Positions 1,108 to 10,029 of a stretch of 11,736 nt of DNA are shown in pieces (the first letter of the stretch is position 1; each line of letters opens with the position of its first letter). The stretch is from a virus. The translations under genes and the position numbers were made by a program. The stretch is from the UHGV virus genome UHGV-0078047; one strand, written 5' to 3'. The notes beneath the pieces were generated by a model. It ran no database searches. It was given only the letters and a program-made list of their open reading frames with translations, and was not told where the DNA came from.

Positions 1108-1245
1108 TTATTTATCCCACCAAGTTCCGTATCTATCTATCCAGTTACACCAATCATCGACACTCCATTTTGCTGTGTCGCATTTTGGCAAATGGCATGA
1201 ATATCTACCTTCTTTGTAAAGTCGGCGTTTGACTTTCTTGAGCAT
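1108..1245 (-). CDS. possible small Cys/Trp-rich protein, 45 aa
   Basis: Hand translation of the minus strand: MLKKVKRRLYKEGRYSCHLPKCDTAKWSVDDWCNWIDRYGTWWDK. ATG at 1245..1243 preceded by GAGGTGA, which overlaps the N stop codon. Below the ORF-track size cut-off. Confidence 0.35.
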   Translation of the reverse strand: MLKKVKRRLYKEGRYSCHLPKCDTAKWSVDDWCNWIDRYGTWWDK

Positions 1246-1253
1246 GGCTCACC

Positions 1254-1559
1254 TCAATCGTAATAAGCTGGAATTGATTTTCCGCGTTGTTTCTGGCGGC
1301 CTGAGCAAGTCACACCCATTTCACTGCGTGGCTTGCGGTAGTAAATACGGTTCTGTTTACGCTCGACTTCTTCTGCCTTCTTGCAGCGAAGGCTTCCGAG
1401 TGATGCTGCTTTATCTGCTCTGACGCAACCAGAGAGCTTTAGCGCAATTTTTCGCGCCAGTCGCTGCTCTTGCATTGCCTGTTCACGTTGAGCCTGTCTG
1501 CGTGCTCTGCGGCGATTTCTGGCGTTATCGTCAGCCAGATATGTAATGACTACTGCCAT
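1254..1559 (-). CDS. N: N-type transcription antitermination protein, 101 aa
   Basis: Arginine-rich N-terminal motif NARNRRRARRQAQ; C-terminal ...YYRKPRSEMGVTCSGRQKQRGKSIP resembles the lambda and phage 21 N C-termini as I recall them. GGAGG RBS upstream; located immediately downstream of the pL/nutL region. Confidence 0.85.
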   Translation of the reverse strand: MAVVITYLADDNARNRRRARRQAQREQAMQEQRLARKIALKLSGCVRADKAASLGSLRCKKAEEVERKQNRIYYRKPRSEMGVTCSGRQKQRGKSIPAYYD

Positions 1560-1702
1560 GTTGACCTCCGATGATTGACTTTGGCGATTGGATGGCCGGT
1601 GCTGAACTCCGGCTTATTTACAGGCACCTTGTTCTCCCGAAGCTCTCCTGCGCGCATCAGCCTGCGCATTCATCCAATCCCAAAGCCAACTACTCTTTGG
1701 TT

Positions 1703-1742
1703 CCCGCATTTCGGCGGGACAATTCCATCAATGTTAAAGAGC
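1703..1742 (-). promoter_or_regulatory. nutL: boxA plus boxB-like hairpin
   Basis: Minus strand reads GCTCTTTAACA (complement of 1732..1742), 13 nt spacer, then CCCGCCGAAATGCGGG (complement of 1703..1718). The same boxA and the identical 16-mer occur downstream of cro on the plus strand. Confidence 0.6.
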
Positions 1743-1788
1743 CTGCCAATCTGTTCCGTTTGGCTACCAGCGTCCTGCTGATGGCTTA

Positions 1789-1842
1789 AATTTAAGATCT
1801 CTTTAATTAATGGTCAAGAGTATTTTTGAAGAAAACTTAAAT
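1789..1842 (-). promoter_or_regulatory. pL with OL operators (P22-type 18-bp sites)
   Basis: ATTTAAGATCTCTTTAAT (1790..1807) matches the P22 operator consensus ANTNAAGNNNNCTTNANT at 10 of 10 fixed positions; TTTGAAGAAAACTTAAAT (1825..1842) matches 9 of 10. Minus-strand -35 TTGACC (complement of 1812..1817) and a -10-like TAAATT (complement of 1789..1794) with 17-bp spacing. Confidence 0.6.
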
Positions 1843-1883
1843 TTTCTTTCGTAACTTAAGTTTGGCTTTGATTTTTAAAGGAA

Positions 1884-1907
1884 ATAAAAAAAGGGGCGAA
1901 TGCCCCC
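1884..1907 (-). terminator. intrinsic terminator immediately after the repressor gene
   Basis: Minus-strand transcript reads GGGGGCATTCGCCCC followed by TTTTTTT; the stem begins 1 nt after the c2 stop codon. Confidence 0.7.
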
Positions 1908-2558
1908 TTATGGAAGGTTTGCTAGTTTTGCATCGACAACTACGCCGATGATTTTGCAGTTCCCGTTGATCTCGATCATCGGATATTGTGGGTTAAGTGG
2001 TTTTAGAAACTTCCTGCCTGCATCAATAACTAACTTCTTGAAAGTTGCCTCGTTTTCTCCTTCGAGCTTTGCAACTACCAGTTTCCCGTTACGCGGCTCT
2101 ACTTCAGGATCGACGAGTATTATCATTCCTTCAGGGATACTGAGACCGGCCGGAGCCGTCATTGAGTCTCCCTTCACGTCCAACCAAAACGAATCTTCTG
2201 AACAGTCTACGGTTGTATCGTACCAGTTATCTATTGCACGCTTATGATATGGTTCTACAGCTTCCATCCAGCATCCTGCGCTCACCCAGCTAATCAGAGG
2301 GTATGACCCTCTTGGATCATGCCTACTGTGATAGGCAATGTTTGAAAGACTTTCCTCTCCTTTCATCAGATAGTCAGGGGAACACTTCAACGCATTAGCC
2401 AGGGCGAGAAGATTCTCTCCATTTGGCTCTGTCTCAGAGCGTTCCCACTGAGATATGGCAACATTAGACACGCCGACCATCTTTCCAAGTGCGGCCTGCC
2501 TGATCTTGAGTTCTTTTCTCCGAGCGCGAATGCGCTCTCCCATCAATTGAGTTTTCAT
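1908..2558 (-). CDS. c2: P22 c2-type repressor (CI-like, HTH plus LexA-like C-terminal domain), 216 aa
   Basis: ORF in track. MKTQLMGERIRARRKELKIRQAALGKMVGVSNVAISQWERSE... matches P22 c2 closely as I recall it; divergently arranged with cro across the operator region. Confidence 0.95.
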   Translation of the reverse strand: MKTQLMGERIRARRKELKIRQAALGKMVGVSNVAISQWERSETEPNGENLLALANALKCSPDYLMKGEESLSNIAYHSRHDPRGSYPLISWVSAGCWMEAVEPYHKRAIDNWYDTTVDCSEDSFWLDVKGDSMTAPAGLSIPEGMIILVDPEVEPRNGKLVVAKLEGENEATFKKLVIDAGRKFLKPLNPQYPMIEINGNCKIIGVVVDAKLANLP

Positions 2559-2624
2559 AGTTAAGACATCTTAAATAAACTTGACTTAAGATTCCTTTAG
2601 TGGATAATTTAAGTGTTCTTTAAT
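2559..2624. promoter_or_regulatory. OR3-OR2-OR1 operators with PR (rightward) and PRM (leftward)
   Basis: Three 18-bp sites each matching ANTNAAGNNNNCTTNANT at all fixed positions: AGTTAAGACATCTTAAAT (2559..2576), ACTTAAGATTCCTTTAGT (2584..2601), ATTTAAGTGTTCTTTAAT (2607..2624). PR -35 TTGACT (2581..2586) and -10 GATAAT (2603..2608). Confidence 0.8.
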
Positions 2625-2638
2625 TTCGGAGCGAGTCT

Positions 2639-2824
2639 ATGTACAAGAAAGATGTTATCGACCACTTCGGAACCCAGCGTGCTGTAGCTAAAGCGTTAGG
2701 CATTAGCGACGCAGCAGTCTCTCAGTGGAAGGAAGTCATCCCAGAGAAAGACGCCTATCGACTGGAAGTCGTTACAGCTGGCGCCCTGAAGTATCAAGAA
2801 AGCGCTTACCGCAAAGCGGCATAA
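2639..2824 (+). CDS. cro: Cro repressor, P22 type, 61 aa
   Basis: ORF in track; MYKKDVIDHFGTQRAVAKALGISDAAVSQWKE... matches P22 Cro as I recall it; first gene downstream of PR. Confidence 0.9.
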   Translation: MYKKDVIDHFGTQRAVAKALGISDAAVSQWKEVIPEKDAYRLEVVTAGALKYQESAYRKAA

Positions 2825-2831
2825 GCAAATT

Positions 2832-2875
2832 GCTCTTTAACAGTCATGGTCCTCATTCCCGCCGAAATGCGGGAA
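2832..2875 (+). promoter_or_regulatory. nutR: boxA plus boxB-like hairpin
   Basis: GCTCTTTAACA at 2832..2842 (same core as E. coli rrn boxA), then 15 nt, then CCCGCCGAAATGCGGG at 2858..2873 (stem can extend to TTCCCGC/GCGGGAA, 2856..2875). Identical 16-mer to nutL. Confidence 0.65.
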
Positions 2876-2932
2876 TACAACGCGCATAAGTTGATGCGCA
2901 TAACTTCTTATTTGTTAAGGAAATACTTACAT

Positions 2933-3226
2933 ATGGTTCGTGCAAACAAACGCAACGAGGCTCTAAGAATCGAGAGTGCGTTGCTTAACAAAATCGCAAT
3001 GCTTGGAACTGAGAAGACAGCGGAAGCTGTGGGAGTTGATAAGTCGCAGATCAGCAGGTGGAAGAGGGATTGGATTCCAAAGTTCTCAATGCTGCTTGCT
3101 GTTCTTGAATGGGGTGTCGTTGACGACGACATGGCTCGATTGGCACGACAAGTTGCTTCGATTCTCACCAATAAAAAACGCCCGGCGGCAACCGAGCGTT
3201 CTGAACAAATCCAGATGGAATTCTGA
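2933..3226 (+). CDS. cII: CII transcriptional activator, lambda type, 97 aa
   Basis: [51 protein letters not shown]... matches lambda CII from memory. The track ORF 2846..3226 is longer; the true start is the internal ATG at 2933, which gives 97 aa. Confidence 0.9.
2942..2955 (-). promoter_or_regulatory. CII-binding site of PRE (TTGC-N6-TTGC)
   Basis: Plus strand GCAAACAAACGCAA is TTGCGTTTGTTTGC on the minus strand, a direct TTGC repeat with 6-bp spacing inside the first codons of cII, as in lambda PRE. Confidence 0.6.
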
Positions 3227-3248
3227 GGTCATTACTGGATCAATCCAC
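3171..3248 (-). ncRNA. oop: oop antisense RNA, about 77 nt, overlapping the 3' end of cII
   Basis: Minus strand reads GTGGATTGATCCAGTAATGACCTCAGAATTCCATCTGGATTTGTTCAGAACGCTCGGTTGCCGCCGGGCGTTTTTTATT, nearly identical to lambda oop as I recall it, ending in a GC-rich hairpin and T6. Confidence 0.6.
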
Positions 3249-7718: not shown

Positions 7719-8305
7719 ACAAATACCGACTTATTTACGCAGATCCGCCTTGGCAATATCGCGACAAAGCCAACGATGGCAATCGCGGTGCTGGACATAA
7801 ATACGATGTTATGAATGTTCAGGACATTTGCCGACTGCCAGTATGGGATTTAGCGGATCCAGAATCTTGCTTGTTAGCGATGTGGTGGGTGCCGACACAG
7901 CCAGCCGAAGCGCTAAAGGTAATTGAGGCGTGGGGATTCAGGTTGATGACTATGAAAGGCTTTACTTGGCACAAAACCAATAAGCACAAAGGCAACAGTG
8001 CGATCGGAATGGGGCATATGACCCGGGCAAATAGCGAGGATTGCTTGTTTGCTGTTCGAGGGCGGTTGCCTGAGAGAATGGACGCTTCCATATGCCAGCA
8101 CTTTACCGCACCGAGAATGGAGCACAGTGCAAAACCACCGATCGTAAGAGACATGTTAGCTAAGTTGCTTGGCGACGTGCCGCGCTGTGAGTTATTTAGC
8201 CGCGACAAAGTGACCGGGTGGGATATGTGGGGCAATCAGTGCGACTCCGATTTTGAACTGGCTACCGGCATGGCGATTAAACCATGCAAAATGGTGATCG
8301 CATGA
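7715..8305 (+). CDS. DNA methyltransferase, MT-A70-like (N6-adenine class) with DPPW motif, 196 aa
   Basis: ORF in track; N-terminal YADPPWQY catalytic motif; start overlaps the ninB stop (ATGA). Sits where lambda has ninC. Confidence 0.8.
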
Positions 8306-9418: not shown

Positions 9419-10029
9419 TGGCTAAACAAGCGCGAAGACGATGTAAAAACGATGATTGTCGGGAATGGTTTCACCCTGCATTCGCTAATCAGTGGTGGTG
9501 CTCTCCAGAGTGTGGAACCAAGATAGCACTCGAACGACGAAGCAAAGAACGCGAAAAAGCGGAAAAAGCAGCAGAGAAGAAACTACGACGAGAGGAGCAG
9601 AAACAGAAAGATAAACTTAAGATTCGAAAACTCGCCTTAAAGCCCCGCAGTTACTGGATTAAACAAGCCCAACAAGCCGTAAACGCCTTCATCAGAGAAA
9701 GAGACCGCGACTTACCATGTATCTCGTGCGGAACGCTCACGTCTGCTCAGTGGGATGCCGGGCATTACCGGACAACTGCTGCGGCGCCTCAACTCCGATT
9801 TGATGAACGCAATATTCACAAGCAATGCGTGGTGTGCAACCAGCACAAAAGCGGAAATCTCGTTCCGTATCGCGTCGAACTGATTAGCCGCATCGGGCAG
9901 GAAGCAGTAGATGAAATCGAATCAAACCATAACCGCCATCGCTGGACTGTCGAAGAGTGCAGGGCCATCAAGGCGGAGTATCAGCAGAAACTCAAAGACC
10001 TGCGAAATAGCAGAAGTGAGGCCGCATGA
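9418..10029 (+). CDS. ninG: NinG (Rap) recombination endonuclease, 203 aa
   Basis: ORF in track; [41 protein letters not shown]... with Cys clusters matches lambda NinG from memory. Confidence 0.9.

Follow-up and report, generated by a model that had tools for sequence, protein, structure and literature searches.

Two probable nut sites in the early region of a P22-like coliphage

The stretch analysed here, 11,736 nucleotides of the virus genome UHGV-0078047 (hereafter the window), represents the early region of a coliphage of the P22-like (Lederbergvirus) type, with ~99% identity over positions 1200-3000 to phages N7, Gally, IME10, CUS-3 and JEP4. The virion type of the phage is P22-like and its immunity genes c2 and cro are P22-type. 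On either side of the immunity region lies a short element consisting of a boxA followed by a hairpin, and these two elements are very probably the nutL and nutR sites of a lambdoid N-antitermination system. An earlier note on this DNA had pointed to the same boxA and an identical 16-mer downstream of cro on the plus strand and downstream of pL on the minus strand, and the coordinates, strands and sense orientation of both copies prove to be right. The 16-mer, CCCGCCGAAATGCGGG, is present at 2858-2873 (+) and 1703-1718 (-), exactly twice in the window, where no third copy was found even at up to two mismatches; two matches occurred in 0/200 dinucleotide shuffles of the window. The boxA, GCTCTTTAACA, is weaker evidence by itself, since 5/200 shuffles gave two matches at no more than one mismatch. 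Both sites lie downstream of promoter-like sequences, nutL after a pL-like and nutR after a pR-like promoter; nutR follows cro, and nutL stands ahead of the open reading frame (ORF) for N (Table 1). The distance from boxA to the 16-mer is 13 nt at nutL and 15 nt at nutR.

When each site is folded alone, the nutR RNA forms an 8-bp hairpin of -12.5 kcal/mol (z -3.9) and the nutL RNA a 6-bp hairpin of -10.5 kcal/mol (z -3.1), both with the 6-nt loop CGAAAU that the earlier note had proposed. The same note had called the boxA rrn-type, and its core is indeed identical to that of the boxA in the E. coli rrn leader: E. coli genomes have a median of 7 copies of a 53-mer that includes TGCTCTTTAACAA, and in the one example examined the annotated 16S rRNA gene lies ~90 nt downstream of it. 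The arrangement agrees with that of lambdoid nut sites in having boxA (consensus CGCUCUU(U)A) 5' of boxB, a short G+C-rich stem with a 5-6-nt loop, one sense copy per early transcript, and an N gene bearing an arginine-rich motif (ARM) first in the pL operon. No Rfam family matches the nutL or nutR site, and the only hits were sub-threshold chance matches elsewhere.

The N protein of the window belongs to PHROG 271, 'anti-termination protein N-like' (E 1.4e-35), and over residues 61-97 it matches the C-terminal part of lambda N that binds RNA polymerase in PDB 6GOV (E 6e-7). Its ARM reads DDNARNRRRARRQAQREQ, compared to GTAKSRYKARRAELIAERR in phage 21. The core A-x-N-R-R-R-x-R-R resembles AQTRRRERR of lambda N in a manual alignment (the HMMER match there is 1.6 bits, not significant), in which the position of lambda N Trp18 would correspond to Ala. 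The extreme C-terminus of the window N (1254-1300, -), …CSGRQKQRGKSIPAYYD, differs from …CVGRQK(M/I)KLGSKPLI of CUS-3 and phage 21 and is closer to …CSGRQKIKGKSIPLI of lambda N, which indicates a further small mosaic patch.

Table 1. Features of the early region around the two probable nut sites of the window
Feature	Position	Strand	Details
N antiterminator gene	1254..1559	-	101 aa; residues 1-33 hold the ARM LADDNARNRRRARRQAQREQ; residues 34-96 phage-21/lambda-like
ARM-coding block, N codons 1-33	1461..1559	-	Replaced relative to phage 21 (DNA alignment; identity back at codon 34)
nutL boxB hairpin (putative)	1702..1719	-	6-bp stem UCCCGC/GCGGGA, loop C-GAAA-U
nutL boxA (putative)	1732..1742	-	GCUCUUUAACA; aligns with annotated boxA-L of phage 21
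pL-like promoter	1789..1817	-	TTGACC, 17-nt spacer, TAAATT; homologous position annotated pL/OL in phage 21 and HK620
Bidirectional terminator	near 1890-1909		Between the pL-like promoter and c2 in gene order
c2/cI-type repressor	1908..2558	-	Helix-turn-helix and Peptidase_S24; between nutL and nutR
pR-like promoter	2581..2608	+	TTGACT, 16-nt spacer, GATAAT
cro	2639..2824	+	P22_Cro family, E 8.7e-28
nutR boxA (putative)	2832..2842	+	GCUCUUUAACA; aligns with annotated boxA-R of phage 21
nutR boxB hairpin (putative)	2855..2876	+	8-bp stem AUUCCCGC/GCGGGAAU, loop C-GAAA-U
Lambda-type cII	2933..3226	+	Phage_CII, E 1.7e-48, profile positions 1-91 from residue 1

Two nt past the nutL boxB begins a second small hairpin, CCAAAG-AGUAGUUGG-CUUUGG (1680-1700, -). 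It is present in ~180/204 nutL sites of this ARM/boxB family, with an invariant stem and hence no covariation, and is kept in similar form in the nutL sites of phage 21 and of a Phytobacter prophage described below. The nutR site lacks it, and so do nutL sites in which an extra ORF has been inserted directly behind boxB. It could be a translational or processing signal of the N leader or a boxC-like element.

Linkage between the boxB hairpin and the N arginine-rich motif

The record of phage 21 annotates boxA-L, nutL, boxA-R and nutR, and alignment of its DNA to the window shows three parts. The two are near-identical from the start of the pL transcript to the end of the boxA-boxB spacer, unrelated over boxB, the N leader and the first 33 codons of N, and 100% identical from codon 34 up to where the aligned segment ends. 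The two N proteins have 65% identity, with the divergence entirely in residues 1-33. On the nutR side, identity to phage 21 runs through boxA and ends before boxB. The ARM of N and both boxB hairpins have thus been replaced together within a shared framework, which is what would be expected if the ARM reads the hairpin. The mosaic junctions relative to phage 21 fall in the boxA-boxB spacers (~1719-1731, -, and ~2843-2857, +) and flank the immunity region. The c2-cro-boxA block and the boxB/ARM specificity block appear to have been exchanged as separate modules.

An exact scan of IMG/VR with the 16-mer returned at least 120 loci, and the viral-locus counts that follow are taken among the matches listed. 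A boxA lies 22-26 nt upstream of the exact 16-mer in 113/120 loci; the other 7 matches have no boxA and were set aside as unrelated occurrences. All 79 loci with two copies have them in divergent orientation (-,+). Their spacings fall into at least 10 classes from 1,152 to 2,990 bp, which implies that many different immunity regions lie between the copies. An N ORF with the ARM motif is found downstream of every one of the 89 nutL-type copies that have 700 nt of flank or more, 75 of them identified by a strict pattern and 14 by inspection, the latter including two disrupted genes (loci L111 and L116). The N-terminal motif of these N proteins is (V/I)(V/M)T(Y/I)LA(D/S)(D/N)(N/T)A(R/K)NRRR(A/E)(R/K)R, and their C-terminal parts are of several very different types, for example phage-21/lambda-like …KQNRIYYRKPRSEMGVTC… and HK620/HK629-type …CLPNVAIYAAGYRKSKQLTAR. 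The same 16-mer also occurs in an unrelated context in L014 and L035 of IMG/VR, as AAAA-16mer-TTTTTT, which resembles a bidirectional intrinsic terminator. The sequence of the 16-mer alone therefore does not define a boxB.

The converse search started from ARM-encoding stretches of IMG/VR, of which the best 80 of 291 were taken. Here 67 loci combine the strict ARM pattern with the canonical 16-mer at both nutL and nutR, and 11 further loci are canonical at both sites on inspection, one of them (L148) with an in-frame stop in N. No boxA was found within 2.5 kb in L166, and in L131 and L195 N lies too near the end of the available sequence for nutL. Every ARM-selected locus among these 80 with a boxA in its available flank carries the 16-mer at both nut sites. 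The earlier note had made its reading of the hairpin depend on conservation of the 16-mer in phages with the same N. The hairpin is indeed kept in phages with the same N ARM, and the ARM is kept in those with the hairpin, but what is conserved is a (C/A)-GNRA-U loop, described below, and not the literal 16-mer.

Among complete E. coli genomes, 448/5,426 (~8%) have prophages with a nutL of this type, and the same N-leader region is found in HK630, HK140, mEpX2, mEp213, CUS-3, IME10 and some Stx phages. A tblastn search with the 37-aa ARM peptide gave no match in the phage collection, perhaps through low-complexity filtering. An ARM-based search of GTDB genomes yielded two true loci, the rest being chance matches to the degenerate RRR pattern. 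One of the two is a prophage of Phytobacter ursingii ATCC 27989 (CABDWT010000001.1, locus L127, 4310-4375, +). It has a degenerate nutL boxA (GUUCUUUAAA), and its nutR is on the minus strand, ~1.5 kb upstream of N. The N protein begins MTVVITILASDNSKNRYRARRAAKRE and is a hybrid at its N-terminus: the leader MTVVITILASDN of the window-type family is followed by SKNRYRARR as in phage 21, so that the ARM region …SDNSKNRYRARR… contains NRYR and RYR like SRYKARR of phage 21. The loops are phage-21-like as well, CUAACA at nutR and CUGACA at nutL, in a nutL whose flanks (ATTGATGGGATTGT…CCAAAGAGCAGTTGGCTTTGGG) are otherwise homologous to those of the window. Phage-21-like loops within homologous nut flanks imply that the loop type follows the ARM and not the flanking sequence.

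The co-swap relative to phage 21 and the linkage to the ARM support the assumption, made in the earlier note, that the hairpin is the boxB of the window N, and ARM and boxB behave, as far as these comparisons reach, as one specificity module, which lambdoid phages exchange as a whole.

The boxB loop and alternative readings

The loop of the window differs from the boxB loops of lambda, P22 and phage 21, of which the earlier note had named the first two. Lambda boxB is a GNRNA pentaloop that adopts the GNRA fold by extruding one base and needs a U-A closing pair (PMC12027372), P22 boxB is a GACAA pentaloop with its third base extruded (PMC12550061), and in phage 21 the CUAACC hexaloop folds in a GNRA-like (UMAC) manner between the bases of a non-canonical C·C pair (PDB 1NYB; PMC12550061). 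CGAAAU fits none of these types: it has 6 nt and sits on a C-G pair, it is not a GACAA-type pentaloop with a looped-out third base, and with the phage-21 type it has in common only the hexaloop size and a pyrimidine·pyrimidine flank.

Variation among related sites suggests how this loop is built. Partner nut sites found solely through their boxA keep the loop CGAAAU, and their stems vary. The variant GCUCCCAC-CGAAAU-GUCGGAGC has A-U in place of G-C as its second pair and a C·C mismatch as its third. Two alternative perfect stems came up beside ARM-type N genes when the loop was kept constant in a scan and the stem was left to vary: CCCUAC-CGAAAU-GUAGGG, in phages that also have a canonical nutL (L257, L261), and UCUCCAC-CGAAAU-GUGGAGA. 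Over 26 distinct hairpins, 6/8 stem pairs have changes on both sides, and 88.5% of the cells are paired, compared to 35-58% when the 3' partner is slid; the observed covariation score was reached by 0/500 shuffles. The loop itself varies in a few loci. Two pairs of sites on the same contigs (L271 with L268, L272 with L269) have CGAGAU at nutL and CGCAAU at nutR, with an N that begins MTVVYTYAASDNSRNRRK(A/E)RR. L302 has AGAGAU at nutL and CGCAAU at nutR with the ARM NARNRRRARR, and L354 has AGGAAU at nutL; these two were left after local filtering of scans for loops whose first base is not C or whose last base is not U, which otherwise returned mostly unrelated DNA. All loops beside ARM-type N genes fit (C/A)-G-N-R-A-U, with the cores GAAA, GAGA, GCAA and GGAA. 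No variants of the loop G or of the final A were found, in scans that could reveal such a change only alongside one at the first or last loop position. RNAfold draws AGAGAU as a GAGA tetraloop on an A-U pair. Variation exactly at N and R of GNRA leads us to read the boxB loop as a GNRA tetraloop: it is best read as a genuine GAAA tetraloop on a non-canonical C·U pair, which is A-U in relatives.

Two observations concern individual loci of this collection. In L257 (IMG/VR 3300009500_000166), an ORF ending …IYRIVNHAH… lies directly after N, ~515 nt past the nutL boxA. This end resembles the C-terminus of the HK022 Nun exclusion protein, and suggests a Nun-like factor in a phage with this type of boxB. 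In L251, L252, L222 and L223 (IMG/VR) a boxA-like GCUCUUUAAAA is followed by GCCUAC-CGAAAU-GUAGGC, with no N-like ORF within 1.1 kb; L251 and L252 have a second boxA 150 nt later with a different hairpin. These four loci may represent a distinct antitermination arrangement in another phage group.

The hairpins could in principle act otherwise than as boxB. As G+C-rich stem-loops they might be intrinsic (Rho-independent) terminators, or attenuators, of early transcription, and the 16-mer of L014 and L035 is flanked by an A-run and a T-run. In the window, however, neither copy has a U-tract on its 3' side (…GCGGGAAUACAACG, …GCGGGAACCAAAGAG), a terminator scan calls neither site, both sites lie upstream of genes that need transcription (N and cII), and the hairpin is coupled to boxA at a fixed spacing in 113/120 of the loci listed. 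We therefore reject this explanation as extremely improbable. An equally improbable one is that the inverted repeat works as DNA, as a site for a dimeric phage or host protein. The repeat is a perfect 5-bp one and lies on both sides of the immunity region, as operators do, but its asymmetric loop has the same orientation to transcription in all of the two-copy loci, the compensatory stem changes include G·U pairs and the loop obeys a GNRA rule, as fits RNA folding, and the true operators are elsewhere, annotated as OL and OR in phage 21 and HK620. The constant loop orientation and the compensatory and G·U changes lead us to reject the DNA palindrome too. It is also very unlikely, though less so, that the hairpin belongs to the nut site but is mainly structural or read by a host factor such as NusA, with the specificity of N residing elsewhere, for example in the CCAAAG…CUUUGG hairpin. 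That second hairpin is conserved after most nutL boxB copies, and N-boxB binding and its distinct specificity are inferred here from co-inheritance and co-swapping. Yet the second hairpin is lacking at nutR and at nutL sites with an ORF inserted after boxB, and phage 21 and Phytobacter keep it despite their other ARM, while boxB tracks the ARM.

More weight has to be given to the idea that the hairpin is a real boxB whose N is not functionally distinct and may cross-react with lambda-type or P22-type partners, although we consider this unlikely too. The loops of lambda, P22 and phage 21 all mimic GNRA folds, lambda N recognizes the GNRA fold (PMC12027372), and the ARM core resembles that of lambda N as described above. 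On the other hand, 0/89 nutL sites pair this boxB with a lambda-, P22- or phage-21-type ARM. In addition, lambda N also requires the U-A closing pair (PMC12027372), where a C-G stem pair and then C·U are found here, and the probable Ala at the Trp18 position separates the two proteins.

The reading of the two elements as nutL and nutR with a boxB specific for the window N has several points weighing against it. The Pfam N_peptide match to the window N, 18.6 bits, is under the family cut-off. The common nutR variant is mismatched in its third stem pair (C·C or C·A). The covariation set was filtered by eye for nut context and mostly retrieved with loop-containing patterns, and is supportive rather than unbiased, and the three-dimensional GNRA fold of the loop is inferred from the sequence pattern. 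The collected copies come mostly from closely related E. coli prophages, so that independent events are fewer than the raw counts suggest; a stronger argument is how diverse the immunity regions and the N C-termini are. The nutL boxB is only ~150-600 bp from the ARM-coding region, so co-inheritance could partly reflect physical linkage; nutR, 1.1-3 kb away across variable immunity regions, makes the stronger case. The literature searched, including that on CUS-3, HK620 and the mEp phages, contains no binding, footprint or antitermination experiment on this ARM/boxB pair.

Proposed mechanism and relation to known systems

In lambda, boxA is the binding site of NusB and S10 and boxB that of the N ARM; in concert with NusA and NusG, N makes RNA polymerase resistant to termination (PMC3177189, PMC2800207; 6GOV). 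By analogy, transcripts started at the pL-like promoter, which would drive the leftward early transcript, or at the pR-like promoter would expose a single-stranded rrn-type boxA in the nascent RNA and, 13-15 nt past it, the G+C-rich boxB hairpin. NusB-NusE(S10) would bind boxA, and the N-terminal ARM of the window N would bind the boxB loop as a helix. The lambda/phage-21-like C-terminal part of N, with NusA and NusG, would then turn the polymerase termination-resistant, so that it could pass terminators into cII and the replication genes to the right and into the genes beyond N to the left. We predict that the system depends on Nus factors, and it may be orthogonal to other N proteins. NusB binds rrn BoxA-spacer RNA with an affinity of 130 nM, compared to 2,200 nM for nutL BoxA-spacer RNA (PMC2800207), and because of this higher affinity we propose that the full rrn-consensus boxA of the window may give tighter NusB-NusE binding than lambda boxA.

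To the right, cII would be the first gene downstream of nutR whose expression depends on read-through. The longest ORF in the cII frame runs from an ATG at 2846, in the nutR spacer, to 3226 (+) and crosses boxB. Homology to lambda cII starts at the ATG at 2933. The CUS-3 record annotates the equivalent long form of cII, probably with a mis-called start. Between nutR and cII lies a further hairpin, GCGCAU-AAGUUG-AUGCGC (2882-2899, +), followed by AUAACUUCUUAUUUGUU and U-rich sequence to ~2917. It is a candidate tR1-region signal, one that N would have to overcome, and the HK620 record places tR1 directly after nutR; its 3' arm varies in related loci (GUGCGC). An oop-like antisense RNA (3172-3241, -) overlaps the 3' end of cII and ends in a strong intrinsic terminator with a 12-bp stem (3202-3175). 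It aligns at 68/70 positions with the HK629 feature annotated 'similar to coliphage lambda oop RNA'.

As features of the genome the two sites are routine, being where the early antiterminator would load onto RNA polymerase. A more tentative proposal, for which we see somewhat less than an even chance, is that the ARM and boxB constitute a fourth, functionally orthogonal N-boxB class, with an uninterrupted GNRA loop on a C·U (or A-U) pair and without an extruded base. If so, natural N systems would span a series from GNRA mimics to a true GNRA, any contact of the antitermination complex with an extruded boxB base would be dispensable or replaced, and the ARM/boxB pair would offer an orthogonal peptide-RNA tether that is ready for use. 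It would possibly be an extra one for RNA tools, in which lambda N-boxB is already employed, as in a deaminase fusion (PMC12027372).

Compared to known systems, the window combines several familiar parts. It shares the boxA core with the E. coli rrn leader, but there is no rRNA gene here, and boxA is followed by an ARM-tracking hairpin in an early phage operon. With lambda it shares the order of boxA and then boxB, an ARM helix with an A-x-x-RRR-x-RR core, a purine-rich GNRA-type loop and a homologous C-terminal RNA-polymerase-binding segment of N. The boxA of lambda is CGCUCUUA; the window has the full rrn consensus instead. Lambda boxB (GAAAA or GAAGA) extrudes its fourth base, whereas the loop of the window has no fifth, extruded base; its closing pair on the C-G pair is C·U (or A-U) where lambda has U-A; and in the manual alignment the window N has no Trp where that of lambda N stacks on the loop. 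P22, with its N (gp24) and GACAA boxB (PDB 1A4T), resembles the window in virion type, in c2 and cro, and in having a GNRA-like loop, but the window has a hexaloop with an uninterrupted GNRA and a different ARM sequence.

Phage 21 comes closer. Its sites occupy the same genome position, with a near-identical pL-boxA-spacer region and identical N coding sequence from codon 34 in the aligned segment, and its hexaloop likewise consists of a 4-nt core between the bases of a pyrimidine·pyrimidine pair. The differences lie in the core (UAAC, compared to GAAA in the window), in the flank (C·C, compared to C·U) and in the ARM (TAKSRYKARR, compared to NARNRRRARR). The loop of the window is best read as the phage-21 architecture in which the core is a real GNRA and the pair below it C·U.

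The closest counterpart is HK620 (NC_002730), which has the identical boxA and 16-mer at both nutL (7753-7794) and nutR (9423-9468), annotated 'putative N-utilization', and whose N is identical to that of the window in its N-terminal half save residue 2, ARM included. HK620 differs in its immunity region (HK620 cI/cro, compared to the P22/phage-21-type c2/cro of the window) and in the tail of N, which is of the CLPNVAIYAAGYRKSKQLTAR type, compared to lambda/phage-21-like …GVTCSGRQKQRGKSIPAYYD in the window. The nut sites of the window are thus already known as putative nut sites through the annotation of the HK620 record. Neither the GNRA-tetraloop rule nor the joint switch of ARM and loop is stated in the records examined. 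Set beside these systems, the nut sites of the window are of an ordinary, already-annotated kind, with a modestly interesting putative specificity class.

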